DNA of 64,000 nt from Tubulanus polymorphus (taxonomy: Eukaryota > Animalia > Nemertea): positions 21,324,345 to 21,388,344 of the forward strand of contig NC_134028.1 of assembly GCF_964204645.1 (NCBI RefSeq), written 5' to 3'. The notes below the pieces were generated by a model. The model was not told the origin of the DNA. It made no database searches and was given only the letters and a program-made list of their open reading frames with translations. The position numbers and the translations under genes were made by a program. Each line of letters begins with the position of its first letter. Positions within the stretch are counted from its first letter, which is position 1. Of the stretch, positions 3,991 through 64,000 are shown piece after piece.

Positions 3991-3997
3991 GGAGTGT

Positions 3998-4595: not shown

Positions 4596-4598
4596 AAT

Positions 4599-11963: not shown

Positions 11964-11964
11964 C

Positions 11965-13267: not shown

Positions 13268-13273
13268 GATGAT

Positions 13274-20240: not shown

Positions 20241-20429
20241 CGCGGGTATTGTAACTGGTATGATTTAGATATCAAGGAATGGAAACGACTTATCAAAAGC
20301 AACGAGGAATGAAAAAGGATGACGTTGGTCGAAGAAATGGAAGAGTATTCTAAAATATTAACCAATTTAGTAAAAAAATATGTATAATAAATGGAACCAG
20401 AACAACCACAAACTATCAATATTACAAAT

Positions 20430-21083: not shown

Positions 21084-21259
21084 GACTGATTGTCGAGGGG
21101 TTTTATACAATCAGTCTGCAAGGTGAAATGGTTATGACTGATTGTAAAAGGGTTTTTATACAATCAGTCTGCAAGGTGAAATGGTTATGACTGATTGTAA
21201 AGGGGTTTGATACAATCAGTCTGCAAGGTGAAATGGTTATGACTGATTGTAAAGGGGTT
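21084..21259. repeat. 52 bp hairpin tandem array, about 3.5 units
   Basis: Same unit as the arrays at 2233 and 3998, in the same orientation. Confidence 0.95.
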
Positions 21260-22310
21260 CAAAACTTTTGGCTCAATTGAATTGCAATGTTTCTGTCATG
21301 ACACAAACGAATGTACCAATCCGTGTGTTTGAAAACGATGACAATGGTTCAATCAGTCTGGAGGGAGGAGTGGCAGTAGCGTCATTTGCTGTCACCGTGA
21401 CAAAGAAGGGTGAAATAGAATATACACTGTAACTGACTGAAGTCTTACGTCAATTCCTGATGCAGGAGCCGCATAGGATCAATCATACCTGTTTCACTCA
21501 CATCCCAATAGTTTCACTGGTGAAGAACATTTACCACTGATGCCAATATGAGGGTTAGATAGAATTCCCAGTTACAGACCCAAGCATGTATCGAGCGATA
21601 ATGAAAATACTTAGGCGATGAGGAAGAGATAGGAAGTTTATTGGCACGATTTGTAAATTAAGAGTAGATCTGATTGATTAAAGAAATGTTGCCTGCTCAC
21701 CTTGTGACTTGATTATTCTGTCATCTTATTCTCATTCTTCTTGTCGCTACCATCGTGATGGGTGTCCATCATAAAATATGATCAACACTACTCAGAGACC
21801 ACAGTCCAGTGAACCAATGTCCATCGGTCATACATCGGAGAAATCAGGCTGGTTTATCCTTGTGTGTTCATCATTGATCTTTACCGTGGTCGTCTTCGAA
21901 ATGTCTACAACAGAAAGAACATAAATGTAACCGATCTACTTTTGAATGAATGAATGCTTTATTCTCTCTAATTACAAATAATTAATATACACATATAAAT
22001 ACAATTGAAAAGGACATCTCCAAGCCGGGGGCTGTACCATAAGGGGAGATGCCCTGTAAAAACAAGTACCCGTATTTCAACAACAATTTAATCTAGATTT
22101 AAGCTAGGGGTTGTCCTTATAACCGAGATGATACAATTTACCGAGATGAACCAAGATGTGTTCATTTCTTCGCAGTGGATATTTTACCCTATACAGCTCA
22201 TGAGTATTTCTGCTATTTTACCGTACATCGTCGCTGATTTACGCTGCGCATGCGCACAGAGGTGCAAGGAAATTGTGGAGAACAGAGTTAGAGAAAATAG
22301 AGCGGATAGA

Positions 22311-41803: not shown

Positions 41804-42829
41804 TCATCTTTGTGAGTATGTTGATCGACATTTGAACAGAATATTTTTTAACGATTTACGGAAGGAAGGACTAGCTAGAACAAAAATAATGAAATTACTA
41901 ACCGAATCGATTCTATTGAGTAGATCTACCACGGGATCTGTAATTCCTTCAACTGGATATTTAATCTTTTTAAAACGCTTCAAACTGATCAGAATGTTGT
42001 TTATACCACCGGGCAATTCAAACAATGCATGTAGACCTATGATACATAATGTCATTTTCATCGCTTGCGTCGAATTTTTGTCGCTAGTACTTGCAGCCAC
42101 TTTCTTTTGACGCCTGCGTATTTGCATTGTTAATATCAGCGTTGCAACGGTGAACGCTGCGAGAAACGTTAACGGTGCCAACGAACTTAATGTAGAACCA
42201 TAATACCGACCGAAAGATACATTAACCCTTCCAAAAATTACTCTATAACCGGGTTTCCTGTACGGACACGTTCGTTTCGTCCATTTAAGTCCGAGGAAGA
42301 AGTATCTATACATTTGACTACAAATTGAAAGTAACGTCAGCCCAATCACTACGACAAGACATCGCCTACGTGTGAACCATTTAAGGGCTTTAAAAGGAAA
42401 CGCAACATGAACGAGTCTGTCTAAACTCATTAGAACTATCGTCCAATTCCGATTCTGTAGAGCTATGCCCTTGGCGGTTACTGTACTAATCAGCATCAGT
42501 GGTTGCATCGCAGCCGACATCCTGAATACATCGTATCCGAGTTGTATCATCGTTATCAGGTATCTTAGACCCCTATAGTTCAGATCGGTGACCAAAAATA
42601 CACTATCGGCGACGCTGAGATACTTCAACAGAAACAAAGCTGAATTAAAACTTTGTGCTGACATGTGGTTCAAAACGACGACTGATAAAACATTAAGAAT
42701 GATTCCTATCACTGATGCAGGAATTCCTAAATAGACGTGCAGTGGAAATAAAGCGTATTGTGTTTTTGGTTTTATAGAACACAAAGAAATTCTCGAGGAG
42801 AACTGCGGCGTCGTCACATTTCCATCCAT
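41804..42829 (-). CDS. Intronless rhodopsin-class GPCR, distant paralogue of 36979
   Basis: Seven hydrophobic segments; GIILN, LSVAD, RNWTIVLMSLDR, SVSNFIIF..FR. Confidence 0.88.
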   Translation of the reverse strand: MDGNVTTPQFSSRISLCSIKPKTQYALFPLHVYLGIPASVIGIILNVLSVVVLNHMSAQSFNSALFLLKYLSVADSVFLVTDLNYRGLRYLITMIQLGYDVFRMSAAMQPLMLISTVTAKGIALQNRNWTIVLMSLDRLVHVAFPFKALKWFTRRRCLVVVIGLTLLSICSQMYRYFFLGLKWTKRTCPYRKPGYRVIFGRVNVSFGRYYGSTLSSLAPLTFLAAFTVATLILTMQIRRRQKKVAASTSDKNSTQAMKMTLCIIGLHALFELPGGINNILISLKRFKKIKYPVEGITDPVVDLLNRIDSVSNFIIFVLASPSFRKSLKNILFKCRSTYSQR

Positions 42830-45049: not shown

Positions 45050-45865
45050 ATGGATCTACAGCGACAACTGAATACCCAGTACCAAAGAGACCCGCTGGAT
45101 AACCCGGATGTATGCATCATAATTTCTAACCTGAAAATGGAAACAGACGAAAGTCTCGAAACTATCTGTTCAAAAGTCATGCAAAAATTAATACAGCCGA
45201 CCCCGAGGGTAATTAAGTGTGTGCGACTGAAGCCCCGAGTTGAGAGCGTACCACCCTTAGTGAAGTTAGCGTTGGAAAGTAAGGAGATAAAGATAATTGT
45301 CCTCGGTGCAAAAAATAAACTAAGAGATGACAAAGAATTCGGAAGTATCTGGCTCCGTTGCAGCAAATCTCATCTTGAGCGTTTACATGAGATAAACACT
45401 CGGGAATTACTTGAAATGGTTCCAGGTGGGAAAACACTCAAACTGGCGAGCAATGGTTACTCGAAAAAAATTCCAATAAGTAAGTAAATCCAGCAGCCGC
45501 CCCGGCAACAAACACGGGACGTAATCCTCGACAGAATAAGTCTGCCACCGATAACAGCCCAGTTGATGATGGACGAGATATGGGTACCGGCAGCGGAACA
45601 AAAAGAGAACACATCCCCTCAGACGATTCAACGGGGGATATCACACCAACTAGGAGTGCAAAACAACTGCCTAAAAACAGAAGCAGGACATGGCAGATAT
45701 ACCAGAAGATATTAAGGCTGGCTTTCAGTGACGCGCTGTCACAAACTCGAAACATCCTGAACATGGATACAGGTGTCGTCATCGCTTAGGAATGCCAGGC
45801 TTACATAAGGCTAAGCTTTGGTCAGTGCAATGTGAACGGTCGGGCGGATACTAACAGCGTAACTG
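45050..45865 (+). pseudogene. LINE ORF1 remnant plus first codons of the ORF2 endonuclease, cut off by Polinton-like DNA
   Basis: IIISNL..VRL..PPLVKLAL..KNKLR is ORF1-like; IRLSFGQCNVNG near 45805-45840 resembles the APE N-terminal WNVNG motif. Confidence 0.55.
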
Positions 45866-46253
45866 AATGTTTATATTTATTGAATAAATTTGATACTTTA
45901 GATCTTAAACATTGTTTCAATTTAATATTAAAATCTGTTCGGCATCTTTCTGTATAATATTCATTAAAATGTTCACGATTATTATCCCTCCATTCTCTCA
46001 TATATTCTGTCATAAAATCTGGATGATTTTCTCTCCATTCCTTTTGATAATCTTGATTATTTACTCGATATTGTTTATTAATTTCTTTAACACAAATTCT
46101 ACAAATACTTCTTTTACCATCTTTCTGAGTTTTATGATTATAATAGTCTGTAAATGGCTTATTCAATTCACATTTTGAACATGTCTTATAGTAAATATCA
46201 ACAACACCAGTGTTATTTGTAATATTAATAGTTTGTGATTGTTCTGACTCCAT
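45866..46253 (-). pseudogene. 3'-truncated zinc-ribbon and helical-repeat ORF resembling N-termini of large-DNA-virus HNH/EndoVII-type proteins
   Basis: KTCSKC..KPFTDYY..KDGKRSICRIC, then repeated xEWRENx and KQCLRSKV; runs into LINE sequence at about 45866. Confidence 0.55.
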
Positions 46254-46299
46254 TTATTATACATAATTTTTACTAAAAACTTTTAACATGTTAAAATCC

Positions 46300-49200
46300 T
46301 TTTAATAATCTCATTTCTCTTCATCCCCTTTGAACTTTAAGTATTCATCTAAATTGCAACCATACGCAACTGTATGAATTCCGTCATCAAATATGTATCG
46401 TTTATCATCAAATGGGTTTCAACTAACCCTTTCTATCTCTTCAATAAACATTTGATGGTCTTCAGATCTTAAACATTTCATCTTATTTCATCTTTTTCTA
46501 ACTTTTTTATTAAATATACAATTGATGTAATCTTTAAAATGAATATTTTTTTCAACAACGCTTTTTGTAATACCTTTCAATTTTTTAGATTCATGATTTT
46601 TAGTTTTATAACTATACATTTTAGATAGAATTCCAATGAACTATATCATTTCTTCACCACATAATTCATCCTTAAACTTCCCAGGAACCTTTTTATTTTC
46701 GTAACTAAACAATTCATGATTTTTAGAATAATTACTAAAGTCGAAATGATGTTTTAAAGTTTTTAAATCATCTGTTATATTATTAGTTTTTATCTTTAAT
46801 ATGTCGATATCAAAATATTAGATTTCTATATGCTTTTCTCCAAAATGAGGTTGTAATACGTTATAGTAAAATTCATACATTAATAATTTCGATATTTCTA
46901 AAACTGATGCTCCAACATAAATTGGTTTATTAAATTTCATAGAAGTTCTCATTTTAACTGCAGCTAAATTGTCATCAAATATTAATGTTTGTAAATGTCT
47001 AATTCTTTTACCATTACTAACTAACTCAATATCATTTCTATTTCTAATACAAGTCTTACCATAGAATACATTATTCATTAGTTTGAAAAAATCTTTCTTG
47101 AAATCAGTTTTATCTTTAGTTCTCTGTTTGGTGTTAAAATCTATATATTTTTCGATCCATTTAGATTGACTAAATGAAATATATCTATGTACTTTTTTTA
47201 GAATCATTCCTTGATTCAAAAAAAATTTAAAATTCTATAATGTACTGCATAATTATATTTATCTTCCTGAGTCGCCATTAACTTTTCTGTATGAATATGA
47301 TTTTCAGGTTTAATTCTTTTTTGATAATTTGATAATTCTTCATGTGTTATAGTTTTATGTTCGGGACAGTATGCTAGATTTCTAGATTCAAATTTAATAT
47401 GTTCAGGATATTCCAAGTCTACAACAAAAAAGTAACCAGTATCTGAATTATCTGCAATATCTAGAATTCTTTTCTTCCAATCAAATTTATCAACATTTTC
47501 GTGCTGTAAAATTCATTTTATTTAAAATTGATTTATTTTTTATTATCAGTTATTTGAAATACTCCATAAGGTTGTGGTTCCATCATTGACCAACCATATA
47601 GATTATTTGCATCTATATATAATAACTTATTTCCAGGATGATCATTTACATTGAAATATCTATCACCTAATACACCTGAAACACCTCCTCTTATAGATTT
47701 TTCAAATAATAATAATTGGTTTATATATTTCTATTTCTAATAAATCCATTTTTATATCTGTAAATTTTAAACCACAGTCCCAAGTTAAACCTGGACTAGA
47801 ATAACAGTGGTAAGGACGCGATATCAAAATATTTTATATTTACATCTTTAAACCGTTCAAATATATCAGTTGATAATAATACATCTGATTTTGAATATAA
47901 ATCTACTAATTGTCCATGATTTCTTATTTTGAAATGATTCCAAATATTCAATGTTCTATTATAAACTCCATCTTTAACATATTCCGATCTTAATTCATCA
48001 TATAATTGTTCTTTTAATAATTCAGTTATGTTAAAATCATTATGATTCTTATAAAATGAATATAAAATGGAATTGCTCCTGCAATCTCATTAATTGAAAA
48101 TCATCATTATTTGGATAGTGTTGCTTTAATATTTCTAATTCATCGTCAACTAATGATTTTGATAAATTATCTAATGAACTACTTAAAAATCTATATGAAT
48201 CTATAAATCTTAGACATCCAAATTGGAAAGATATATAATTCTCAGATGTTTAAGCTAACATTTTGAATTAATAAGTTGGTATTTTAACAACATCTTTTGA
48301 TCTATTTGAATTTAATCTTTCTATTTCATTATTGATTTCTTCTATTTTATGACATAGTTGCTTGATGAATAAATGTGCATCATATCCTGATGAATTATGA
48401 AATATAACTGGAACAAAATTGGTTTTCTTAGCTTGTAACTTACAATTCTCATGTGCTGCACCTCTAAATTTACCATTCAAATGATCATGATCTCTTACTT
48501 TTTTATCAGATGAATAGAATACTTGATTACAATAATAACATTTATCTGCAAAATCAAATTCTTCTTTGTCTTGTTCTGTAATTATAATTTCTATATTTGT
48601 ATCTAATAGTTTACTAAACTTCATTTCATATTCAATTAATAAGTCACAAAAATGATTGATAACATTTTCATTTCTATAATGATAATATTCACTTTTAATA
48701 AGTTCTGGATAATCAGATTTTATATTTAATCCAAAAACTGAAGCACTTTGATGAATCTTTTTAATAGTATTTGTTTTTGGTGGTTCTTCTGAAAAATCAT
48801 TTTCATTAGAATTTGATTTCTTTCTTTTATAATAGATTTTTTTTATCTTGATCAGTTAATTCTTTATCTAATGATTCAAAATCTCCATAGATTACAAATG
48901 GTACTTTATTCTTGTAATCATATTTTTTTAATTCTAATATCTTATCTTTTTCATTTGGTTAAATTAATTTACAATAATAATGATTATCACATAATTGTTT
49001 ATGATTTAATAATGCACTTTCATTACTGAATTTAGTTATATATTTTCTACATAGATATATTTTACGAGTATAATCATTTTCTGATTTAAAAAATGAATCA
49101 ATTTGTTTTATCCACATATAACGATTCTCATAATATAATATATCTATAACACCATTTGAATCATAATCTTTTAATAAATACAAAGGTTCTAATGCATAAT

Positions 49201-50330
49201 GTTTAATATCATTACCTTTTATTTGGTAATTTGATTAAATCAAATACATTTATTTTTAGATTATTATCTCTTTCTATTTTTGGAATATTTTTAATTCTAA
49301 CATGATAACTTTCTATCTTATAATTATTTTCAAATGGTATATAATTTGATTTTCTACAAATATTATCAGTTGCAGGATGTAGGGAACTAATAATTGACCA
49401 TAAAAACATATATTATCTTCATTTTCTACATTTATAACAGCATTATTTCTAAATGGTAGTTCAATATAACTTGATGCATTTATATTATCATCTTTATAAT
49501 ATGATAAATTATTTTCATCAATTGGTTTCGATTAAGTTAATTTATTATATTTTGTATTGTACACATGTAACGTCATAAATATTATTTCATCAAATATTAA
49601 ACCAGATCCTTCAAACTATTTCTCATCTAATCTACTTTTTATTTTATTAATTCATTTATCTAATCTATCATCTACATGTTGTTTTGAAATAATATGTTGT
49701 GAATGAGAATTTATATTATATATTGGTTTATCTTCAGATTTCATAAATTTAACTTTAGCAGATATACTAATTTTAGGTTATTCCACGTCTGTAATTATTT
49801 TTATAATATTTTTCATATTTTCCTAAATGCTTTTTATTTTCTTCTTATGATTTGCCTTTATAAAATTTAAACTCGATAGCAGCTGGTACAATATCACTTT
49901 TAAATGCTTCGGTTATATCCATATCTTTTTTAACAACTAATGAATTAATATAATTTCTAACATCATCCATGTATGGTCTTTTATTGTTTAATTTATTTTT
50001 TATTCTTTTAATCGTGCTTTGTTTCTTATCATTATCTTTGGCAAAATAATCTACACCTAAAATATCATTGTTAATATTTCTAATTTGATTCTTAGATTTT
50101 AAATGTTGTTCATAATATCTTTTGTTACTAAATGATTGATTACATGTATCACATTTATATATTTCTTTTTCATTCTTTAATTCTTCTAATTTAGTTTCTA
50201 ATATATCATCTTTATATTCTAATTTTAATTTATTTTCTAAGTGAGATTTAGTATCATTATGTCTTGCTTTTTGAGATCTATCTATATTAATTTTACATGT
50301 TGGACGGTAGTACTTATTGTTTGCTTCCAT
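46300..50330 (-). pseudogene. Decayed full-length pPolB, inverted paralogue of 50776-54800
   Basis: Colinear fragments (ORFs 49845, 49212, 48959, 48268, 47216, 46818) with many stops and frameshifts. Confidence 0.92.
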
Positions 50331-50340
50331 TTATTATATA

Positions 50341-50693
50341 AGTAATAGGGATAATAGGCTTTCAGATCAAAGGTCGAACGGTCGAGCTCATTAAAAAACA
50401 AAAAACATAAAAATAATAACAATTTCTACTTGAATTACTCGCAAAACTCATAAAAATGAACAATAATTCTCGCACACTCGAATTTATTTTTCATTTTCTA
50501 CTCGCTAGAAGAAAGTGTGAGTAAAGTGTGAGTGAAATAATTCATAAATCATTGAATATTTATATGCGTTGGGTTCATTTTTATGAGTTTTGCGAGTAAT
50601 TCAAGTAGAAATTGTTATTATTTTTATGTTTTTTGTTTTTTAATGAGCTCGATCATTAAACCTTTAACCCGAAAGCCTATTATCCCTATTACT
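50341..50693. repeat. Inverted repeat between the divergent pPolB copies
   Basis: Perfect 80-bp arms at 50382-50461 and 50573-50652 with a 111-bp spacer, plus perfect 23-bp arms at 50341-50363 and 50671-50693. Confidence 0.92.
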
Positions 50694-50775
50694 CTTAAAA
50701 TATTCACATATATATGAATAACATTTAAATCATTGAACTTCTAAAATCAATTTTAATAAAAAATTTAGTATTAAA

Positions 50776-53700
50776 ATGGAAGCAAATAAATACTACTGCC
50801 CAACATGTAATATCGATATAGACAAGTCTCAAAAAGCAAGACACAATAAAACTATAACACATTTAGAGAATAAATTGAAACTAGAGTATAAGGATGATAT
50901 ATTAGAAACTAAATTAGAAGAATTAAAGAATGAAAAAGAAACACATAAATGTGATACATGTAATCAATCATTCAGTGATAAAAGATATTATAAAGAACAT
51001 TTAAAATCTAAAAGTCATATTAGAAATAAGAATAATGATATTTTAGGTGAAGATTATTTGATAATGATAACGATAAGAAACAGAAAACAATTAAAAGAAT
51101 AAAAAATAAATTAAACAATAAAAGACCATACATGGAAGATGTAAAAAATTATATTAATTCATTAGATAATAAAAAAGATATAGAGATAACCGAAGCATTT
51201 AAAAGTGATATTGGTCCAGCAGCTATCGAGTTTAAATTTCATAAAGGTAAAACATTAGAAGAAAATAAAAAACATTTAGAAAATATGAAAGAAATAATAA
51301 AAATAATTACAGATGTTGAATATCCTAAAATTAGTATATCTTCTAAAGTAAAGTTTATAAAATCTGAAGATAAACCAATATATAATATAAATTCTCATTC
51401 ACAACATATTATATCTAAACAACATATAGATGATAAATTAGATAAATGTTATAATGAAGTAAAAACTAAAATAGAAGAGAAATATTTTGAAGGATCTGGT
51501 TTAATATTTGATGAAATAATATTTATAACTTTACATGTTTATAACACAAAATATAATAAGTTAACTAAATCAAAACCAATTGATGAAAATAATTTATCAT
51601 ATTATAAAGAACCTGATATTGAAGCATCAAGTTATATTAAACTACCATTTAAAACTAATGCTGTAATAAATGTACAAAATTTTGATGATAAATGTTTACT
51701 ATGGACTATAATAAGTTGTTTACATCCTGCAACTTATAATATTTGTAGATTAACTCATTATAAACCATTTGAAAATAATTATAAGATAGATAAGTATCCT
51801 GTTAGAATTAAAAATATTCCAAAAATAGAAAGAGATAATAATTTAAAGATAAATGTATTTGATTTAATCAAATTACCAAATACAAAAGGAAATAATATTA
51901 AACATTATACATTAGAACCTTTATACCTATCAAAAGATTATGATTCAAATGATGTTATAGATATATTATATTATGAGAATCATTACATGTGGATTAAACA
52001 AATAGATTTATTTTTCAAATCAGAAAATGATCACCATAATAAAATATATCTATGTAGAAAATGTTTACATAAATTTAGTAATGAAAGTACATTATCAAAT
52101 CATAAACAACTATGTGATAATCATGATTATTGTAAATTAGTTTTACCAAATGAAAAAGATAAAATATTAGAATTCAAAAAATATGATTACAAAAATAAAG
52201 TACCATTTGTAATATATGGAGATTTTGAATCATTAAATAAAGAATTAACAGATAAAGATAGAAAAGATATATATTATAAAAGAAAGAAATTAAATTCTAA
52301 TGAAAGTGATTATTCAGAAGAACCACCAAAAGCAAATACTATTAAAAAGATTCATCAATCAGCTGCTGCTTTCGGGTTATATATAAAATCTGATTATCCA
52401 GAACTAATTGAAAGTGAATATTATCAATATAGAAATGAAAATGTTATCAATCATTTTTGTGACTTATTAATTGAATATGAAATAAGATTTAATGAAAAGT
52501 TAAATAAGAATATAGAAATAATTATGACAGAAGAAGATAAAGAAGCATTTGCGTTTGCAGGTAAATGTTATTATTGTGAAAAGACATTTAATTATAAAGA
52601 TAAAAAAGTAAGAGACCATAATCATTTGAATGGTAAATTTAGAGGTGCAGCACATGAGAATTGTAACTTACAAGCTAAGAAAATTAATTTTGTACCAGTT
52701 ATATTTCATAATCTATCAGGATATGATGCACATTTATTTATCAAACAGCTATGTTATAAAATAGAAGAAATCAATAATGAAATAGAAATATTAAATTCAA
52801 ATAGATCAAAAGATAAAATACCAACTTATAAATTTAAAATGTTAGCTAAAACATCTGAGAATTATATATCATTCCAATTTGGTTGTCTAAGATTTATAGA
52901 TTCATATAAATTTTTAAATAGTTCATTAGATAATTTATCAAAAAGTTTAGTTGATGATGAATTAAAGATATTAAAAGAATATTACCCAAATTATGATGAT
53001 TTTAAATTAATGAGATATAAAGGAGCAATTCCATATTCTTTCTATAAAAATCATAATGATTTTAAAATAACTGAATTATTGAAAGAACAATTCTATGATG
53101 AATTAAAAAATGAATATGTTAAAGATGAAGTTTATAATAGAACATTGAATATTTGGAATCATTTCAAAATAGAAAATCATGGACAATTAGTAGATTTATA
53201 TTTAAAATCAGATGTATTATTATTAACCGATATATTCGAAAGGTTTAGAGATGTAAACCTAAAATATTTTAATATTGATCCTTGTCATTGTTATTCATCA
53301 CCAGGATTAACATGGGATTGTGGATTAAAATTTACAGATATAAAAATGGATTTGTTAACAAATATAGATCAATTACTATTATTTGAAAAATCTATAAGAG
53401 GAGGTGTTTCAGGTGTATTGGGTGATAGATATTTCAATGTAAATGATAATCCTGGATATAAATTATTATACATAGATGCAAATAATCTTTATGGTTGGGC
53501 AATGATGGAACCACAACCTTATGGGATGTTTGAAATAACTGAAGTTTTACAAATTGATAAATTTGATTGGAAGAAAAGAATCCTAGATATTGCAGATGAT
53601 TCAGATATTGGTTACTTCTTTGTTGTAGATTTAGAATATCCTGAAAATATTAAATTCAAATCTAGAAATCTAGCATATTGTCCCGAACATAAAACTGTTA

Positions 53701-54800
53701 AACATGAAGAATTATCAAATTATCAAAAAAGAATTAAACCCGATAATCATATTCATACTGAAAAGTTAATGGTAACTCAAGAAGATAAATATAATTACGT
53801 TGTGCATTATAGAATGTTGAAGTTTTATTTGAATCAAGGAATGATATTAAAAAAAGTACATAGATATATTTCATTCAATCAATCGAAGTGGTTAGAAAAA
53901 TATATAGATTTTAACACCAAACAGAGAACTGAAGCAAAAACTGATTTTGAAAAAGATTTTTTTAAGTTAATGAACAATGCGTTCTATGGTAAGACTTGTG
54001 AAAATATTAGAAATCGAAATGATATTGAGTTAGTTAGTAATGGTAAAAGGATAAGGCATTTACAATCATATCCTAAGTTTATAGGTAACAGAATATTCGA
54101 TGAAAATTTAGCAGCAGTTAAAATGAGAAGAACAAGTATGAAATTCAATAAACCAATCTATGTTGGTGCATCAGTTTTAGAATTATCAAAATTACTAATG
54201 TATGAATTCTATTATAATATATTACAACCTCATTTTGGAGAAAAAAATATAGAAATATTATATTTTGATACAGATTCTTACATATTAAAGATAAAAACTG
54301 ATAACATAACAGATGATTTAAAAATATTAAAACACCATTTTGATTTCAGTAACTATCCAAAAAATCATGAATTGTTTAGCAATGATAATAAAAAAGTTCC
54401 TGGGAAGTTTAAGGATGAATTAGGTGGTGAAGAAATGATAGAGTTCATTGGTATTAGATCTAAAATGTATAGTTATAAAACTAAAGAACATGAAGCTAAA
54501 AAGTTAAAAGGAATAACCAAAAGTGTAGTAGAAAAGAATATTCATTTTAAAGATTACATCAATTGTATATTCAAAGAAGAAGTTAGAAAACATAAAATGA
54601 AATGTTTAAGATCTGAAGATCATGAAATGTTTATTGAAGAGATAGAGAAGATAAGTCTAAACCCATTTGATGATAAAAGATATATTTTAGATGATGGAAT
54701 CCACACAGTCGCCTATGGTTGCAATTTAGATGAATATATAAAATTCAAAAGAGAAGAAACAAAAGAAAATGAGATAATGAAAAGGATTCTAACGTGTTAA
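50776..54800 (+). CDS. polB: Protein-primed family B DNA polymerase with N-terminal zinc fingers and EndoVII-like insert; one frameshift near 51058
   Basis: YGDFES, VRDHNHLNGKFRGAAHENCN, FHNLSGYD, YIDANNLYG, KLMNNAFYGKT, YFDTDS; the inverted copy (ORF 49845) reads through the frameshift position. Confidence 0.95.
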
Positions 54801-54828
54801 TAAATTTCAATAAAAATTTGTATAATAA

Positions 54829-55153
54829 ATGGAGAGTAAACAAGTACACAGTGAATTCTTAGATAGAATTAAAGATACCACAAATGTAAAATCTGTAGAT
54901 TATAAATTCAAAAAGTTAACAGAATTAACAATTCACAAGAAATATTTAATTACAAATATTGTTACAGTTACTAACAAATATGGAGATAAATTAGTAATTC
55001 ATTTAGAATATGAAGGATTAAAAGGAAACTTATTTACCAGATAGATTTCATAGATTATCAAGTGAAGATCTAGAAGAATTATGTTCTGGAGATTTCTATT
55101 TCGTATACAAAGGTAAGAATGAAAAAGGACACCATGAAATAGATTTCGAATAA
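54829..55153 (+). CDS. Small conserved protein (possible OB-fold), frameshift near 55022
   Basis: FKKLTEL..KYLIT..TNKYGDKLVIHL continues in another frame as ETYLPDRF..FVYKGK..IDFE*. Confidence 0.55.
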
Positions 55154-55170
55154 GAAAATATGTAAAATAA

Positions 55171-55929
55171 ATGGCGGAATTAAAAGAATACAGAATATTT
55201 GTTGATTCTAGAAAACTTACAAATTATAAATCACATAATTTATTAGTACAATTAGATAGAGAATTTAAGAATTGTGTAGATTTAAAATTAGTAAATATAA
55301 GTTTATGTAATTCTTTTTACAATGTATCGGATAAAACTCTTGAACATAGAGTCTTTTTAATTCATATTAGAAATATAAATAAATGGTTTCATCTATTTTT
55401 AAAACCAGGGTTATATAATTTAGAAACATTAGCCCAAGAAATTAATCGGAGAGCACGATTAAAACTTGGAAGTGAATATAAGTTTTTAATTAGATTTATA
55501 AAAAGTGATAGTTCTGATAAAATTAAAATAAAGTTAGATGATGAAAGTCAACATGCATTTATGGTAAGGAAACCTTTAGCTAAACTGTTAGGAATTAAAC
55601 CACAAACTGTTACAGGAAACGTAGATGGTAATTCAAATATAATTCCTTTTACACACCTTTATATTTATTGCAATTTAATCGATCCTACAAAAACATTTGA
55701 AGCTACTAAAGATATAACTTGTAATTCTAGTATACTAAATATTTTACCAATAAAAAATGTTAAACAATTTGGAACTCAAATAAATTATAATTTAACTGAA
55801 TGTGATTTTAAACCTTGCATTCCTAAATTTAATAATTTTAAATTAGAAATAAGAAATCATAATGGATACTTAATTGATTTAAATAACTTTCCTGTGATAT
55901 ATGAATTAGTTATAAGATGTAAAGAGTAA
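55171..55929 (+). CDS. Minor capsid (penton)-like protein
   Basis: IFVDSR..NSFYNV..PGLYN..LYIYCNLID..LEIRNHNGYLIDLNNFPV, a single jelly-roll-type pattern. Confidence 0.7.
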   Translation: MAELKEYRIFVDSRKLTNYKSHNLLVQLDREFKNCVDLKLVNISLCNSFYNVSDKTLEHRVFLIHIRNINKWFHLFLKPGLYNLETLAQEINRRARLKLGSEYKFLIRFIKSDSSDKIKIKLDDESQHAFMVRKPLAKLLGIKPQTVTGNVDGNSNIIPFTHLYIYCNLIDPTKTFEATKDITCNSSILNILPIKNVKQFGTQINYNLTECDFKPCIPKFNNFKLEIRNHNGYLIDLNNFPVIYELVIRCKE

Positions 55930-55945
55930 TTTTTTCATTATATAA

Positions 55946-56305
55946 ATGAATATAACTGTTGGACCGAGTATATGTTTTGGATTTGATTTTAAACGTGAGA
56001 AAGAAATGAAATTTAACATGAATGATGTAATTACACATATAAAAAATGTTGTATTTTCTAATGAAACAACATTTGAGTATGAAACAACAATAGATAAAGA
56101 AACTTTAAATGTAGAAAAGATTACTAATTTAATTAGAGAATCTTTAAGATTTTATGAATTAGATGAAGATTTTATCATCGATGATATTAAAAAAATAATA
56201 ATTGAAATATATGATAATCATAAAACTAGTAATAAAATAAATGTTGAAATAATCATAAATAAGATAACTAAATATTTTGATGATAGTAATTTTTTTGATA
56301 AATAA
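55946..56305 (+). CDS. Hypothetical protein
   Basis: Open ORF in the packed gene array with the T-tract/TAAATG start motif. Confidence 0.6.
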   Translation: MNITVGPSICFGFDFKREKEMKFNMNDVITHIKNVVFSNETTFEYETTIDKETLNVEKITNLIRESLRFYELDEDFIIDDIKKIIIEIYDNHKTSNKINVEIIINKITKYFDDSNFFDK

Positions 56306-56527
56306 ATGAGTGATAATAAGTGGATAATAACTGGATTATATAATGGCGCATTACTATCAGTTGGAACTGTTGGTTATTCAATGGTATTAAAAAAAGTATT
56401 CAAAATGGGAAGTGTTAATGTTGATAGATTTGATATAAATGATATTTTAAAGTTAACATTAGCAGTTACTTTATCTAATTTAACTATTGATTATTTGGAA
56501 AAACAAAAATATATTCCTCCCATATAA
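56306..56527 (+). CDS. Small hydrophobic protein
   Basis: Two hydrophobic helices; TAAATG start overlaps the upstream stop. Confidence 0.7.
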   Translation: MSDNKWIITGLYNGALLSVGTVGYSMVLKKVFKMGSVNVDRFDINDILKLTLAVTLSNLTIDYLEKQKYIPPI

Positions 56528-56551
56528 ATGCATAATTTTTTTGTTAAATAA

Positions 56552-56974
56552 ATGGCTTCTGCAATTATAACTATTATAGGATCAGCAATTGTTAACGCTT
56601 TAGCATTTACTGGTGGTGGATATTTATTTAAACATATTGATAAAAATGGATCATTAACAGAACAAAAAAGACATAATTTAGCGTTAGAGAAATATAATAA
56701 AGATGCAGAAGAATATAGAGAAAAGAGGCAAAACTATATGGATTACATCAATAAAGAATTATATGATCAGAAGATTTCACATAGAGATTTTCAATCAGTT
56801 GATGATGCAATGAGTTTATATAACGCGGTAACAAATAAAGAAAAATTACATCTATACAAACCTAAATTATCATATTATTATACCCCAAGTAAAGAACAAC
56901 AGAAATATGAAATAATATGGATTTTAGGTGGAACTGTTATTGTTATATTTGTTGCTTATAAGTTTACTAATTAG
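56552..56974 (+). CDS. Membrane protein with hydrophobic ends and a central coiled coil
   Basis: MASAIITIIGSAIVNALAFTGGGYLF..EQKRHNLALEK..IIWILGGTVIVIFVAY. Confidence 0.75.
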   Translation: MASAIITIIGSAIVNALAFTGGGYLFKHIDKNGSLTEQKRHNLALEKYNKDAEEYREKRQNYMDYINKELYDQKISHRDFQSVDDAMSLYNAVTNKEKLHLYKPKLSYYYTPSKEQQKYEIIWILGGTVIVIFVAYKFTN

Positions 56975-56993
56975 TAATTTTTTTGCTAAATAA

Positions 56994-57422
56994 ATGGAAG
57001 ATAAAGTTGATAGTATTGATATTATTCCTCATGATATAAATAAAACTAAATTAAAAACATATTTAGAAAAACAAATATTAGAATTTGAAAGTGACTTAAA
57101 GATAAAAAAGAAAAAATATATAAAAAGTAAAATTATATATTATCTTATTATTAGTGGTTCGGTTACAATTAGTTCTGTAATAACATTTCTAGCAATATTT
57201 AGTCCATTAACACCTTTAGCTATATCAATTGGTGTATTAGGATTAAGTTCAAGTGTTTTAACTGGTATAAGTTCAAAATTAAATATAAAAAGTAATAAAG
57301 AAAAAATTAAAACAAAAGAAATTAATAAATTAAAGAACACACTAGATTATATAATAAGTTTAAATGGTCATATAACAGTTGAAGAACAAGATAAATTATT
57401 AAAAGAATTAATAAATTATTAA
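56994..57422 (+). CDS. Two-transmembrane-segment protein
   Basis: IIYYLIISGSVTISSVITFLAIF and LAISIGVLGLSSSVLTGI. Confidence 0.7.
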   Translation: MEDKVDSIDIIPHDINKTKLKTYLEKQILEFESDLKIKKKKYIKSKIIYYLIISGSVTISSVITFLAIFSPLTPLAISIGVLGLSSSVLTGISSKLNIKSNKEKIKTKEINKLKNTLDYIISLNGHITVEEQDKLLKELINY

Positions 57423-57438
57423 TTTTTTAATTATATAA

Positions 57439-58740
57439 ATGGGGTTTCCAAAAGCTTTCCAATATAATAAATCAATTAAATATAATATTCCAGCAATAGA
57501 TTTTAAGAAAAATATTACATATAAAAATATAGTTTTAAATTCATTAACTAATTTAGAAATTTATGTTAATGAATCACAGTTTTTTATTTCTAAAATGGAA
57601 AATATATTTAATACATATGAAGTTACTTTTACTCGAGATGAATATCATATATATAAAGTAAAATCTAATATGAAATATTGGCAGAATCAATTAAATTTTG
57701 CTGTTTATTGTGCAACAACAGGATGTGGAATAAGTTGGAATGATCATTTAAATAACTTAGATAAAAATTTGAAGTATTCTGATTTAAAATTAATTCACAC
57801 AATATTTAGATTTCACACATATTTTCAAATCAGAATAATATTAAATGAATTAGAATGTCCTTTACCCGGGTCTAAATATTTTAAAGAATTGGATAATAAT
57901 ATTAATATATCCAAGTTTTATAAAATATGTAATGAATTTAATATAAATATTAATTCCGATTTTAGAGCGCATGGTAAATTGCAAGGTGTTGGTGAAGAGT
58001 TTGAAATAAAAAGAATTGATTATATGCATAGAATTTCAGCTTATCATAATTATAAAATTGATAATAATAATGGTTGGGTTAATTTCATTTTAGAAAATGG
58101 TGAAGGTTTTACAAAATCAGGTATACAAAGAATAAATCAATCTATTAGAATTTATTTGATATGTATTCTAGGCGCCCAAGTTGAAACAAGATCACCGATA
58201 ATTGGAAATGATAACACTTCATTCGATGCGCAGAAACAGTTTAAAGTTTTATTTGAAGATTCCATACATGATGATAAAAATAGATCGATTCCAGAAAACA
58301 TTATAAGATATCAAAATTATTTAGATAAATCTCATGTAAGACTTAATTATTGTATAGGCCCTAATCTATTAATTATTTCTAATGATTTAGTATTAAAGAT
58401 GGGAAATATAATTGGTTATAATAATCTAATTAAAACTGCAACAATAAATAATTCATTTGGGTTAAATGATATAAATAAAAAGATTATTACTGCTCCAAAA
58501 TTAATGGAAGGTGAAAAAAATAAAAAACACATTCAATCAACTGAAACTAAAACTAAGAATATTAAATTAAATAATGATTCTAAAATAAAAGATTACAATA
58601 CATCAGAAAATAATAGAACTGATATTATTCAACATGATATAATTAAAACTAATGATGATAATAAATCCCATGAAAATACTAAATTAGCTATAACTTGTAT
58701 AGGAATTGTAATAGGAGGAATATTATATTTTAAATTTTAA
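57439..58740 (+). CDS. Hypothetical 433-aa protein with C-terminal membrane anchor
   Basis: WQNQLNFAVYCATTGCGIS motif; ends LAITCIGIVIGGILYFKF. Confidence 0.75.
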   Translation: MGFPKAFQYNKSIKYNIPAIDFKKNITYKNIVLNSLTNLEIYVNESQFFISKMENIFNTYEVTFTRDEYHIYKVKSNMKYWQNQLNFAVYCATTGCGISWNDHLNNLDKNLKYSDLKLIHTIFRFHTYFQIRIILNELECPLPGSKYFKELDNNINISKFYKICNEFNININSDFRAHGKLQGVGEEFEIKRIDYMHRISAYHNYKIDNNNGWVNFILENGEGFTKSGIQRINQSIRIYLICILGAQVETRSPIIGNDNTSFDAQKQFKVLFEDSIHDDKNRSIPENIIRYQNYLDKSHVRLNYCIGPNLLIISNDLVLKMGNIIGYNNLIKTATINNSFGLNDINKKIITAPKLMEGEKNKKHIQSTETKTKNIKLNNDSKIKDYNTSENNRTDIIQHDIIKTNDDNKSHENTKLAITCIGIVIGGILYFKF

Positions 58741-58756
58741 TTTTTTTATTATGTAA

Positions 58757-60445
58757 ATGGATGTAGAAGGTGGAGAAGATTATGAAATTGGAGAAATGGG
58801 AAATAATAATGAAGGATATATTGATGATGATTATAATGATGCAGGTGCTAATATTGATAATGATGATGAATCAGCATATAATACTAATTTAGGTGAAGAT
58901 GATGATTATGATGATGATTATGATGATGATCCCGAATTACGTGAAAAATTAAATAAATATTTAGAAGCTCCTGAAAGGGGTAGAATTTCAACTAGAAGAG
59001 AAAGAAAAGAATTTATGAAACTATTAGTAGAACAACAAGAAAAATATCCTGATAAACCTATGGAATTATATAGAATGAAATCTAGAGTAACAGATACAAT
59101 TGTTAACGAATTATTACCAAAAGTTGTAATAGATGAAATTGAAACTGAAGATGTTGTAGAACAAATTTTTAAAGATGACCCATATTTCACAAATAATTTA
59201 GAATTTAAAAATGATTCATGGTATTATAATGTTAATTTAAATAACAAAATTGTATCAATTCAATTATCTAAAATGGGTCAAGAAAATATTTATGAACCTG
59301 GAATGCGAGCATTATCTACAATTGAAAGTTCAAAAGGTGGTAGAGAATTTCTCAGAATTATATGGAATGCACTCGATAGAGTAAATGAAGAAGAACCAAT
59401 TCCTAATATTGATATAAACAAATATTCACCATTTAAAAATCCAAATCCTACTGATTTTGATCCAGAAATGGAAGAGAATAGAAATCAATTAGATAAATTA
59501 AGATCTTCAACACCCGAAACATCGAGAAGAGACACTCAACAAATTGATAATGATTCAAGTCAATTACAATTAACATTAGAAAAACAAATTAATAGATTAA
59601 GTGATTCAGAAGAAGAAATGAATAGTACTGGAATAAATCAACTGCAATATTTACTAGAAAAAGGATTATTTGATTTAACTGATGATGAATTAGAAGCATT
59701 TCCTGAACAAGCACGTAGAGAAATTAAAGGTATGCAAGAATCAGCTGATAAAATTGCGCATGATAAAAGTATAAGAGATTTTAAGATTAGAACTTTAGAA
59801 AAAGAATTAACTGATAAAAATAAAGAAATAGAAAAAATAAAGTCTGATTTAGATCATCAAGTAATTGATGAAATAGAATATAGGCAAAAAGAATTACGTT
59901 TAGAAAAAGAAATAGATGATTTAAAATATAACAAAGAATTACAGGAAAAAGAAAGAGATACATTATTAAAATTATATGATAATAATATTAATAGATTAAA
60001 AGTTAATTTTAAAGATTTGTTGATTAAACCAGATTCTGAAATATCATTAAAAGACAGAATAAAGTTATTATTTAAATTAGAAGGTATAACAATTCTTTCA
60101 ATTCTAACAGCTGTAACTATGTTATTTACAACAATAGGTTTAGCTATATCAAATGCTTAAAAATCTACTCCTACTCCAAATAAACCGGATAAACCTCCAG
60201 GCAATAATTCTATACAAGATAAAGTTAAAGATGGTTTAAAGAAATTAGCAAAATATTTATGGGAACTATCAAAGAAATCTGCTGCAGCATTGCCAGGAGT
60301 TATTGCTTCAATTGTTGGTTTTGTTTTAAAATCTGCAGGAAACATTATTAACTTTGCTGCTGAACATATTATTTTATTTTTAATTACAGTTGTAAGTGCT
60401 ATTATTTTTGGGTTAGTAAATATGATATCAAAAAATATCAAGTAA
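58757..60445 (+). CDS. Acidic coiled-coil protein with hydrophobic C-terminus; frameshift near 60158
   Basis: Adding one T at GCTTAA gives ISNALKSTPTP..AAALPGVIASIVGFVLK..IILFLITVVSAIIFGLV..KNIK*. Confidence 0.75.
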
Positions 60446-60485
60446 CCATGATAAAAAATAAATAATTAATTTTTTTGTTAAATAA

Positions 60486-61733
60486 ATGAGTGGGAGTTAT
60501 ATCAGTCCTTCTAAGATTTCTAGAATATCTAACGCTATTAAAGCAGAAAGATCACATCATATAATTACTCATAACCCTTCAAATATTAATCCCGATGAAA
60601 CTTTATACGTTAGAATTCCGAGATTAACACAAAATACTTTTTATGTTCCAAATAGTATTTATTTATCAGCTGATATAAAAGTAATCGGTAATAATAATAA
60701 TTATGTTGTCGATAATGTTGGAAGATATTTGATTAAAAAGTTAACAATAAAGATTGGTCCGGAAACAGTTTTCTCATTAGATGATTATAATTTATTTATG
60801 CATTATAAAGATTTATGGTTAACAAAAGAAAATAGAAATAATATGATATTTCAAGGCATCCAATCAGAAAACCAAAATAAATTAAGATCAGAAGCTAATA
60901 GCGCAATATTAACAAATGATGTAGATAAATTGATAAAAAGTATATATGGAAGCAAATATAAAATTCCATTAGACTTTGAATTGATAAATAATAATGCGCC
61001 TTTATATAAATACGCAATTCAAGAAGATATTATATTCGAGATAACATTTGCTCCTGTAAATGAAATTGTATTATCTAGCGTTAATAAAGATATGGGTTAT
61101 AAATTATCGAATATATGTTTAGAATATGATACAGTAACTGATGAAAATATTGCTAGAACAATTCAAACTCAATACAATCAAGGGTTTTCATTATTATATG
61201 ATTATATTGATAAATTTAAAACTGTAACTATTAATGCAAATGATGAAATAATTAATGAGAATATTAACTTCCCTAGAAGATCTATTAAAGGTATATTAAT
61301 ATTTCTTACCATTGGAACGTATACTAATGGTGCAATAAATGTTGACAATTATTATAATCCTGAAATAACAAAAGTAGAAATAACTATTGAAGGTATAGCA
61401 AATAAAATATTTTGTCAAGGAATGAGAATGATTGATCAATGGGTAGAAATTAAAAAACATTTTATGAATGAAAAAGTAAAATCATTTGAAAATTGTAACA
61501 TTAATCAAATTGATTATTATACCGGTAATAAATATGCATTATGGGTAGATTTTAGAACAACTGAAGATAATTCATTACATGGTTCTGGAAAAAAACTACA
61601 AAATACAAAAGATGGAATACAATTATTCATGACAAAGAAAAAAGGAATTAAAAATTTTAAAATGCATATTTATATTATATCTGACGCGCAATTAAATATT
61701 GTAAATTCACAATTAGATAGTGTTATGTATTAA
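60486..61733 (+). CDS. Major capsid protein (predicted double jelly-roll)
   Basis: 415 aa, beta-rich; NPSNINPDETLYVRIPRL, NVGRYLIKKLTIKIG, LSNICLEYD, ALWVDFRT; size and position fit a Polinton-like capsid. Confidence 0.8.
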   Translation: MSGSYISPSKISRISNAIKAERSHHIITHNPSNINPDETLYVRIPRLTQNTFYVPNSIYLSADIKVIGNNNNYVVDNVGRYLIKKLTIKIGPETVFSLDDYNLFMHYKDLWLTKENRNNMIFQGIQSENQNKLRSEANSAILTNDVDKLIKSIYGSKYKIPLDFELINNNAPLYKYAIQEDIIFEITFAPVNEIVLSSVNKDMGYKLSNICLEYDTVTDENIARTIQTQYNQGFSLLYDYIDKFKTVTINANDEIINENINFPRRSIKGILIFLTIGTYTNGAINVDNYYNPEITKVEITIEGIANKIFCQGMRMIDQWVEIKKHFMNEKVKSFENCNINQIDYYTGNKYALWVDFRTTEDNSLHGSGKKLQNTKDGIQLFMTKKKGIKNFKMHIYIISDAQLNIVNSQLDSVMY

Positions 61734-61765
61734 AATTTTAACTTTAATAAAAATATATATAATAA

Positions 61766-62824
61766 ATGGAAGGTAAAGTATATAAACATATTCCATACAT
61801 CGATACCGATGAAAATAATGATGGTTTATATTATGTAATACCTTGTAATATAGCTTTGATATTTGATCCTATTTTTAAAAATTATAAAACTAAACTAATA
61901 GAAATCGATAATAATAAAAGTGAAGTTGTTGATAATTTAAGTAATGTAATTGATAATAATGTAATACCTTCTACATCTAATAACATAATACCTTCTACAT
62001 CTGTAATACCTTTTACATCAAATAATATAATACCTTCTACACCTGTAATACCTTCTACATCTGTAATACCCTCTACATCAAATAATATAATACCTTCTAC
62101 ACCTGTAATACCTTCTACATCTAATAATGTGATGCCTAATACATCTAATAATGTAATACCTTCTACATCTAATAATGTAATACCTTCTACATCTAATAAT
62201 GCAATAATATTAAATGTTAGTGAAAATAGAAATTATTGTGGTTATTGTAATGGTGAATTTTCAAACGCTCCATCAAATTGGAATAAACATATGAATACAA
62301 ATTCACATATTACTAATGTTATAGAACGTGTTGGTAAAAAAGAATTTATAGAACACCCATTTAGATATGTTACAAAGTTTGTTTCAAATAAAAAAGTAAA
62401 TGGTGAAAAAATATATGAAGATTTATTATTAGCAACACCTAATAAAGATGAATTAGATTTAACTGATGCTAATGAAATATTAGGATCAAACACTGTAAAT
62501 GAAATATTAGGAGCAAACACTAATAAAGATGATGTCATACACCCACATGATGATATAGTTACAGATAAACATATTGATAATAAAGATTCTATAAAACTTA
62601 AAGTAGAAAATAATGATAAATTTGATTGGAACAATAAGCTTAACAATAAAACAACTATTGATGATTTAGTAAAAAATGTGAAAAAGATGAAAAAGGTGAA
62701 AAAGGTGAAAAAGGTGAAAAAAAATTATAAAGATGTTGATGTAGATTCGGTAGAGCATTTAAATATGTTGTTAGCGTCTGATAGTGAAAGTGATTCAGAA
62801 ATTGATTATCTAACACTCGAATAA
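61766..62824 (+). CDS. Low-complexity protein with (NN)VIPSTS repeats and one zinc finger
   Basis: 18/24-bp repeats at about 61955-62205; CGYC..HMNTNSH; KKVKKVKK; acidic tail. Confidence 0.7.
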   Translation: MEGKVYKHIPYIDTDENNDGLYYVIPCNIALIFDPIFKNYKTKLIEIDNNKSEVVDNLSNVIDNNVIPSTSNNIIPSTSVIPFTSNNIIPSTPVIPSTSVIPSTSNNIIPSTPVIPSTSNNVMPNTSNNVIPSTSNNVIPSTSNNAIILNVSENRNYCGYCNGEFSNAPSNWNKHMNTNSHITNVIERVGKKEFIEHPFRYVTKFVSNKKVNGEKIYEDLLLATPNKDELDLTDANEILGSNTVNEILGANTNKDDVIHPHDDIVTDKHIDNKDSIKLKVENNDKFDWNNKLNNKTTIDDLVKNVKKMKKVKKVKKVKKNYKDVDVDSVEHLNMLLASDSESDSEIDYLTLE

Positions 62825-62949
62825 TAAAGGTTGAAAATTATATAAAATAATATTAAATAAAAAAGGGGTTTTAATTATTTAAGGTATCTAATAGGGTATC
62901 AGGTATTAGGGTATATAATAGGGTATCTAATATATAGGTAAACAAATAG

Positions 62950-63561
62950 TTATTTTATAAATTTATATTCATATGGAAATTGTAATCTCATTAATAATTT
63001 TGAACCTTTATTATTTTTTAATTTATTCATATATTCATCATGTAATTCAGGAGGTATAATTTGATTTTCTTCCAATGATTGTTGCATAGATTTTCTATCT
63101 TTGTTGTAGAATAAAACTAGAAATCTTATATTCTCTCTAAAATCTTTCACAATTGAATTATATTTCTGATTTAAAACCCATGTTGTTATCCCAAAATGTC
63201 TACCAGAGAAAGCTAAATAACATAACTCGCTTTCTCTAATTTTAGAATCATGTAAATTTGCGCAATCATCGATAATAAATAATGTATTAGATCCTTTATA
63301 AATATCTAATGTAATTTTTATACAATTATCTAAATTTTCTTTTACTGTTTTAGGGTCTAATATAATAAACTTTTTTATCTTAACTATATCTCTATTATAT
63401 GTTTTATTCATTTCATATGTAGGACAGAATAATATTATATTATCAAAATGATTCTTATAAATAGTTTCTAATAAATCTAATATGAAGTGTGTTTTACCAC
63501 AATTGGTTACACCAGTAACTAACATATTATGAGGTTCAAATATAAATAAATCTTTATTCAT
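62950..63561 (-). CDS. A32/FtsK-HerA-type genome packaging ATPase
   Basis: Walker A GVTNCGKT, Walker B LFIIDD, and GRH motif. Confidence 0.92.
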   Translation of the reverse strand: MNKDLFIFEPHNMLVTGVTNCGKTHFILDLLETIYKNHFDNIILFCPTYEMNKTYNRDIVKIKKFIILDPKTVKENLDNCIKITLDIYKGSNTLFIIDDCANLHDSKIRESELCYLAFSGRHFGITTWVLNQKYNSIVKDFRENIRFLVLFYNKDRKSMQQSLEENQIIPPELHDEYMNKLKNNKGSKLLMRLQFPYEYKFIK

Positions 63562-64000
63562 TTATTCTTTTAATTTTACTAGATAAAATCCATTCATTAA
63601 ATTTATCATCATATCCTTTATATTTCACCAAAGAATACTTTTTTCCTTTAAGAGTTTTTGTTTTCAATACTTTTTCTATTTTGTATTCTATTTCATCTGG
63701 ATTTGGTACTAATGATAATTCTTGTTCATAGAAATAACCTAATATTTCTTCATCTTTTAGATCTTCTAATTTATAAACAAATGGTTTAGTTAATATTATC
63801 TTTTTAATTTTAAATATTTCTTCAGTAAAATTAGGGGTATAACCTTTATAAAATGTTTTTCGATATTTAGAAATTCTAACGTGTTGTCCTATTTTAAATT
63901 TAGGTTCTCCAAAATCATGTGTAACAAATGCTCCATATAAATTATTCCAAACTATTTCTGAATTTTCTTCTTTTCTAGCTTGTATAGGTTTCATATTTAT
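63554..64000 (-). CDS. Polinton integrase, C-terminal part with chromodomain (5' part outside the window)
   Basis: MKP..PKFKIGQHVRISK..KGYTPNFTEEIF..FYEQEL..LVKYKGYDDKFNEWI; aligns with the C-terminus of ORF 14596..15687. Confidence 0.9.
   Translation of the reverse strand: MNMKPIQARKEENSEIVWNNLYGAFVTHDFGEPKFKIGQHVRISKYRKTFYKGYTPNFTEEIFKIKKIILTKPFVYKLEDLKDEEILGYFYEQELSLVPNPDEIEYKIEKVLKTKTLKGKKYSLVKYKGYDDKFNEWILSSKIKRINE

Follow-up and report, generated by a model that had tools for sequence, protein, structure and literature searches.

The sequence analysed here is a 64,000-nucleotide (nt) window of the genome of the nemertean Tubulanus polymorphus (contig NC_134028.1, positions 21,324,345 to 21,388,344 of the forward strand; coordinates below are those of the window), and our subject is a Polinton in its low-GC part, together with the promoter-like motifs at the starts of its genes. 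GC content falls to 20–25% from approximately 45800 to the window end, and the element overall has 23% GC. Assignment to the Polintons (Polintoviricetes) is based on predicted gene content, in which polymerase, integrase, capsid, penton, and ATPase genes were all recognised. The protein-primed B polymerase gene (50776..54800, + strand) matches Pfam DNA_pol_B_2 (E 7.9e-17 over the C-terminal 716 amino acids, aa), and a frame change near its 5' end disrupts the reading frame. The penton (minor capsid) gene (55171..55929, +) and the double jelly-roll major capsid protein gene (60486..61733, +) were identified from predicted structures: the AlphaFold2 penton model (predicted local distance difference test, pLDDT, 69) found mavirus penton as its best Foldseek matches (E 1e-9), bearing out an earlier note on this DNA that had called the gene penton-like, and the capsid model (pLDDT 81) matched the capsids of Paramecium bursaria chlorella virus 1 (PBCV-1), iridovirus, and mavirus (E 1e-16 to 1e-10). 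On the - strand lie an A32-like packaging ATPase gene (62950..63561; Pfam Pox_A32, E 1.8e-11) and the 3' part of an integrase-chromodomain gene (63554..64000; Pfam Chromo), which is cut by the window end and is 87% identical to an open reading frame (ORF) of the related locus L001 that matches rve at E 1.7e-9. Among the remaining genes, g8 (58757..60447, +) has an in-frame stop at 60158-60160, after which the open frame resumes to 60447, and g10 contains a tandem NNVIPSTS-type repeat at 61960-62236. No adenain-like maturation protease was recognised in the part of the element that the window holds (the window end cuts the element), in 26 scanned ORFs of relatives, or in others inspected by eye. 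Searches of viral contigs with the capsid and ATPase found no relative, and PDB sequence searches with g1 and the polymerase returned no match.

The element is endogenous and multi-copy. Facing the main copy head to head is another, partial copy (45822..50461, -), inverted and decayed, which covers the polymerase end and is 84-92% alike. In run X7, DNA reads covered most of 50271-61993 approximately 280- to 1250-fold (one bin, 70-fold), compared with 6- to 30-fold on the flank, and their identity to the element was mostly 90-99%; this excess over the flank indicates that the family has many copies. A single element end falls inside the window, and a read-depth peak with loose ends near 50340-50730 is compatible with a terminal repeat.

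TAA immediately precedes the ATG at 11 of 12 gene starts of the element and at 37 of 551 other ATGs in 50560-64000, the interval used for the next two comparisons as well. Upstream of this TAAATG lies an A/T tract in one of two forms, which we call the T and A classes. The T-class motif occurs on the + strand before g3 (119 aa; 55927..55948), g4 (73 aa; 56287..56308), g5 (140 aa; 56533..56554), g6 (142 aa, hydrophobic; 56975..56996), g7 (433 aa; 57420..57441), g8 (58738..58759), and the major capsid gene (60467..60488). The pattern TAATTTTTT(T)-N5-7-TAAATG has seven matches across the 64 kb window, all of them on the + strand and at these starts, with none on the - strand, and the T-run begins at exactly -16 in 7/7. 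A T6 run within -19..-9 distinguished 7/11 TAAATG starts from 0/37 other TAAATG (p 4.5e-6), and an A-type tract was found at 4/11 starts and 2/37 others (p 0.019); since the patterns were picked after seeing the data, these p values are descriptive. The seven motifs reported in the earlier note are thus all present, the 22-mers before 56552 and 60486 (g5 and the capsid gene) are identical as claimed, and the tract before 56306 does lie within the upstream ORF, in its last codons (NFFDK). The motif's leading TAA is the upstream gene's stop codon in 3/7 cases (55927, where it ends the penton gene, 57420, and 58738). Stop-start coupling was considered as the source of TAAATG and rejected, accounting for 1/10 plus-strand starts: that of g4, whose motif lies within the 3' end of g3 and whose initiator TAA, alone among these starts, doubles as an upstream stop codon. 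The T tract of g6 (56977) was one base longer in 169/862 DNA reads, indicating that the spacing differs by one between copies.

A-class motifs precede the polymerase gene (50758..50778, +), g1 (71 aa; 54811..54831, +), the penton gene (55153..55173, +), g10 (352 aa; 61748..61768, +), and the packaging ATPase gene (63559..63579, -), the last within the coding end of the integrase gene. The earlier description of this class needed revision. Its literal form, AAAAT-N0-2-TATAATAAATG, had no match at all, and a looser pattern did match; the polymerase start at 50776 has the A tract but reads TAAAATG instead of TAAATG; and the list of starts had overlooked the A-type ATPase start at 63561(-) and a start at 50330(-) with the initiator only. 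Three supposedly separate promoters, at 54829, 46253, and 20391, are instead one slot, directly 3' of the polymerase gene, in related copies: that of g1, that of the decayed inverted copy (46251..46271, -), and a short remnant (20373..20393, +) that is 80% alike to 46213-46303. The slot heads a different small ORF in each copy (g1, an endonuclease-like ORF, and the remnant, respectively) and is a variable cargo site. In addition, 58 DNA reads skip the polymerase gene, running directly from its promoter (50773) into the A-class promoter that follows (54827); they represent deletion derivatives arising between two look-alike promoters.

The comparison drew on 45 related loci. TAAATG occurs at 67/70 listed starts of the window and its relatives, a list hand-picked from loci of the TAAATG group. 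Near-duplicates (L002, L014, and L017 of L001, L013, and L016, respectively) were left out of the class-by-gene table and the terminator-site counts; L014 was retained in the profile correlation, the head-to-head and spacing survey, and the capsid tree. In that survey the window's own capsid gene is labelled 'divergent' solely through a shadow ORF. Spacing to the ATG, which the earlier note had proposed to check in relatives, proved conserved. A relative with 49% GC keeps tract plus initiator at 8/12 starts against 10/387 background positions. This locus, L016, and its near-duplicate L017 retain the upstream A/T tract, and their initiator is TATA(G), a few bases 5' of the ATG (10/12 starts versus 25/387). 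L016 also carries an ORF (6543-7052, +) resembling the late transcription factor VLTF3, with a Pfam match below the cut-off (E 6e-4); its top three Atlas clusters are Pox_VLTF3 at 0.88-0.89, which we treat as a lead only, and a search for longer relatives of the ORF found none. VLTF3 has already been reported in polintons (PMC11131425). A second Polinton in the same window (11496-16172) has TAAATG at 0/7 starts, indicating that TAAATG is a trait of the lineage and not of the host.

The two classes are one tract in two orientations: reverse-complementing the T-class tract gives the A-class tract, and both occupy one slot, approximately -18 to -11. T starts have two A followed by a T-run, together spanning -18..-10, and A starts have an A-run at -18..-13 followed by T. 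In the window, the step from A to T precedes -16 in 7/7 T starts and precedes -12 in 5/5 A starts, and these are exact mirror positions, since inverting the T slot around its midpoint carries the step from the first place to the second; overall, the step lies at -12 or -13 in 21/24 A starts. The same relation is visible where genes are divergently arranged. In L008 and L009, g8 and the capsid gene stand head to head with start codons 28 nt apart and have a single common tract, A in one direction and T in the other, 28 nt being the gap that maps the slot onto itself. The ATPase and capsid genes of L011, 30 nt apart, likewise use one tract as A for one gene and T for the other. A further candidate pair, L009 646-/675+, was dropped, its + ORF being an antisense shadow of g8.

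The earlier note had suggested that T-class genes are late structural or membrane genes and A-class genes mostly earlier ones, and had proposed as a check that class should track gene identity in relatives. Beyond the closest relatives it did not: both classes occur in 9/14 gene groups (those with at least two classified members), including capsid (8 T, 3 A, 3 unclassified) and penton (3 A, 2 T, with distant pentons identified by profile at E 5e-11 to 5e-5) as well as g5, g6, g8, and others. The ATPase (4 A, 2 unclassified) and g10 (3 A) groups are never T, and g4 and g7 are never A. In a capsid tree of 20 rows, the A label requires at least three changes. Even L003, the closest syntenic relative, differs from the window in the class of g1, the gene in the post-polymerase slot (T-class in L003; orthology weak, 29% identity), and of g3, whose T-run is lost, its slot being filled by an A-run contributed by the penton coding end. 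T-class promoters also precede non-structural genes, namely two HNH-like genes and a nucleoside kinase gene, the deoxynucleoside kinase gene of L003 (10340-10981, -; Pfam E 1.7e-31). Given the mixed groups and the T-class kinase, a fixed rule of T for late structural and A for earlier genes is not supported. What survives of it is a bias, with class kept in 8/10 genes of L003, and there may be a softer difference in timing or strength between the orientations.

Likeness to poxvirus post-replicative promoters, also proposed earlier, withstood scrutiny: TAAAT overlaps the ATG, and the T-run covers the 10th base upstream and ends 6-7 nt before TAAAT. At the late promoters of vaccinia, TAAAT(G) coincides with the start codon and a T is conserved at the 10th base upstream amid other T; its intermediate promoters have TAAA and prefer A in place of that T, and mpox promoters likewise favour T (late) or A (intermediate) upstream (PMC11980589). 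The vaccinia late core lies 5-7 bp from TAAAT (PMC5294985). TAAA is recognised by the polymerase, and the AT-rich core is recognised through its shape by the intermediate factor; this G8R core spans -26..-13 relative to the start site, with contacts at -18/-19 and also at -21/-22, and is followed by a 12-bp spacer (PMC12917281). TAAATG is also found at entomopoxvirus late genes (PMC3061580). By these standards, 11/12 starts of the element have TAAAT(G) over the start codon, and the T class matches the vaccinia late core in composition and position (run at -16..-10/-11, spacer 6-7 nt), whereas the A class does not. The A class shows the intermediate preference for A (A at -13 in 5/5 window A starts, without T at the 10th base). 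Measured from the inferred start, its A-run at approximately -16..-11, with a 9-nt spacer, overlaps the intermediate core in part, and the AT-rich block around it reaches approximately -18; relative to the G8R core, the run is shifted toward the start by roughly half a helical turn. The system thus shares with vaccinia the TAAAT over the start codon, the placement of the T-run, an A-preferring alternative, and an AT-rich core without base-specific reading. It differs in that the Polinton is small, with no RNA polymerase gene in the parts examined and no Pfam match to a poxvirus RNA polymerase subunit among 23 window and 26 relative ORFs; the A form of its putative promoters mirrors the T form exactly, at a shorter distance from the start than the intermediate core of vaccinia; and its replication genes share the same initiator. 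African swine fever virus (ASFV) offers a second comparison, having an initiator beside the ATG, a close AT-rich upstream element, and U-run termination at all stages. Its initiator is TATA, in contrast to TAAAT in the Polinton, and its late initiator resembles the TATA(G) of L016 (PMC7163114).

We propose, with a probability of about one half, that all these motifs are post-replicative promoters of one kind, which would be recognised by the RNA polymerase of a large DNA virus, poxvirus-like or of another sort, infecting the same cell. One promoter type is made likely by the common initiator, the constant slot, the mirror symmetry of the classes, the common tracts of head-to-head genes, and the class switches among orthologues. 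In a cell that such a virus had infected, copies of the element free of the chromosome would be served by the virus's post-replicative transcription machinery. TAAAT would be the transcription start, to which a poxvirus-type polymerase would add a short A leader, and the A/T tract would be a core read by its shape and tolerated in either orientation. Which way the tract faces would reflect how the genes are arranged and their history, and it may adjust promoter strength, timing, or read-through; in its T orientation the tract may in addition terminate transcription of the gene before it. On this view the element would behave as a virophage-like satellite, likely relying on a helper virus for its transcription machinery in place of a fixed early/late programme encoded by itself.

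The T tracts had also been suggested to act as TTTTTNT terminators, and taken to its limit this idea would make them mainly TTTTTNT or poly-T terminators of the upstream gene, with TAAATG and general AT richness as the promoter. TTTTTNT is present in 5/7 T tracts of the window and absent from two; in all, it occurs in 23/30 T cores. Across 16 loci of the TAAATG group it is depleted from coding strands (18 versus 47 expected from synonymous shuffles) and undepleted in reverse complement (120 versus 122) or in 7 loci with other initiators (8 versus 8.4); these counts are not independent across related loci, and one capsid site recurs in 3 loci. Avoidance strictly specific to TTTTTNT is weakened as an explanation by the equally strong depletion of other T6 runs (4 versus 12), and avoidance of U-runs extends to both classes (ratio 0.42 T, 0.24 A). 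We therefore consider U-run termination acting on all genes plausible, and T tracts may double as terminators. That termination should be their main role is improbable, since a terminator does not need to stand exactly 16 nt from the next ATG, T cores precede head-to-head genes that have nothing upstream to stop, and TTTTTNT occurs within 60 nt at just 2/16 convergent gene ends, some of whose ORFs may be spurious. Chance, or copy-paste filler in 23% GC DNA, could appeal to the AT richness of the element and to its one exact 22-mer duplicate, but is refuted by the absence of the T tract from all 37 non-start TAAATG and by the retention of tract plus initiator in the 49% GC relative; we give it almost no weight.

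Transcription in the nucleus by host RNA polymerase II, or by a factor of the element itself, would treat the motif as a compact TATA/initiator or poly(A) grammar that happens to resemble poxvirus promoters. The element is integrated and multi-copy, AATAAATG or TATAAATG is found at 57/67 starts, expression of polinton hallmark genes is known from corals (PMC11131425), and the distant relative L016 has its own VLTF3-like gene. On the other hand, a TATA box right on the ATG leaves polymerase II no room to start, and a T at -3 makes a poor context for translation initiation in animals. The motif is also kept between head-to-head genes, where no transcript ends, some of its variants lack AATAAA, and the second Polinton of the same host lacks it, so that we regard this reading as quite unlikely. 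A pure polyadenylation hexamer (AATAAA) was tried and rejected, with AATAAATG at only 36/67 starts and TAAATG kept between head-to-head genes. A more serious contender is two temporal classes under helper control, A intermediate-like or earlier and T late, with genes able to switch during evolution. It agrees with the upstream preferences of vaccinia and mpox promoters (PMC11980589) and with the closest clade, in which g4-g8 and the capsid gene are all T and the polymerase, ATPase, and g10 genes are A. The vaccinia D13 capsid scaffold and A32 ATPase are intermediate genes, which would suit an A-class ATPase and a flippable capsid gene. The mixed gene groups, the T-class nucleoside kinase and HNH-like genes, the half-turn displacement of the A tract relative to the G8R core, and the presence of U-run avoidance in both classes nevertheless make it doubtful.

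Several observations weigh against our proposal of one helper-read promoter type. The fit between the flipped T-class and the A-class profile is close (best at -18..-11, r 0.90, in the window only; best at -19..-12, r 0.96, with relatives, for 25 T and 17 A starts outside head-to-head pairs), but as both classes were defined on the same -19..-10 window this correlation is partly circular, which the step positions and gaps are not. Only two head-to-head pairs are both independent and clean; L013/L014 (24 nt), L001 (19 nt), and L022 (37 nt, not TAAATG) fit more poorly, and the head-to-head genes of L003 (72 nt) and L007 (64 nt) have separate tracts. A common tract is no proof of equal timing, because a T-late/A-intermediate pair would look alike, and the retention of class in most genes of L003 leans the same way. 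Coral polintons are expressed, and the accessible text of that report names no helper (PMC11131425). Nor is TAAATG exclusive to poxviruses: in motif scans of viral contigs, which yielded 5 and 39 loci, 2/39 viral loci had at least 40% TAAATG starts (6/15 and 6/11), both of them giant-virus bins, and no helper virus sequence was found in the contigs scanned. These bins, L081 and L085, combine frequent TAAATG starts with T-rich upstream tracts. The 5 loci, checked by tblastn, contained no element gene.

Helper-dependent transcription through borrowed promoters has precedents. Virophages copy the promoters of their helpers: mavirus and endogenous mavirus-like elements (EMALEs) carry the late motif of Cafeteria roenbergensis virus (CroV) (PMC8547959), and PgVV Gezel-14T carries the early motif of Phaeocystis globosa virus (PgV) (10.1101/2022.07.28.501842). 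Like them, the Polinton integrates, encodes a capsid, and repeats one motif ahead of most of its genes, and motifs differ between lineages, TAAATG here and TATA(G) in L016. Unlike them, it has an animal host, a Polinton-type capsid gene, a poxvirus-type motif, and a helper that is putative. Polinton-like viruses occur with entomopoxviruses (PMC11296320), providing a precedent for polinton-like satellites of poxviruses, although the relatives studied here come from metagenomes and large eukaryote contigs; the words 'promoter', 'motif', and 'TAAAT' have 0 occurrences in that paper. With Mavericks/Polintons (adintoviruses; PMC8502044, PMC11131425) the element shares protein-primed polymerase B (pPolB), rve integrase, double jelly-roll capsid, penton, and A32-like ATPase, and it differs in the lack of a recognised protease gene in its windowed part. 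The accessible text of these two papers gives no promoter grammar, and the word 'promoter' has 0 occurrences in each. No report of TAAATG promoters in Polintons was found in the literature searched, the main texts of mostly non-subscription papers. The present case is thus an apparent instance of virophage-style promoter mimicry in a new form, with poxvirus-type starts and a reversible core in an animal Polinton. A bolder joint reading would have three parts: integrated virophages of an unseen poxvirus-like invertebrate virus would form one lineage of animal-genome Polintons; the core would be reversible, with T as a late promoter and terminator of the preceding gene and A permitting read-through and earlier, with timing a possible further effect; and sister lineages that combine a TATA initiator with a VLTF3-like gene would fit other large viruses, so that the initiator predicts the helper. 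Taking all three together we offer this only tentatively, as possible but on balance improbable.

The remainder of the window contains other features. The second Polinton (11496-16172, -), which is unrelated and has approximately 35% GC, includes split capsid-like ORFs, a penton-like ORF, an rve-chromo integrase, and an adenain-like protease match below the cut-off (Pfam E 7e-4). A RING-finger ORF (10294-10986, +), outside the TAAATG element, starts at TAAATG after an A-run. Gag and pol of a long terminal repeat (LTR) retrotransposon occupy 28083-33532 (-); direct repeats of 300 nt lie at 27138 and 34295. Two Srw-type seven-transmembrane (7TM) receptor genes are located at 36979-38052 and 41804-42829, and together with the retrotransposon they point to a host among the invertebrate animals. 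Degraded polymerase-like fragments of another element (1777-7480) and a 52-53 nt tandem repeat family (2230-4600 and 21086-21260) were also observed.

In sum, these analyses bear on the transcription of animal-genome Polintons and on their possible dependence on a helper virus. Poxvirus-type promoters ahead of almost every gene would name the kind of polymerase to examine and would point to an unseen large virus of this host. Polinton families may likewise become sortable by predicted helper according to their promoters, and the mirror-image core would offer a natural experiment on what distinguishes intermediate from late promoters.

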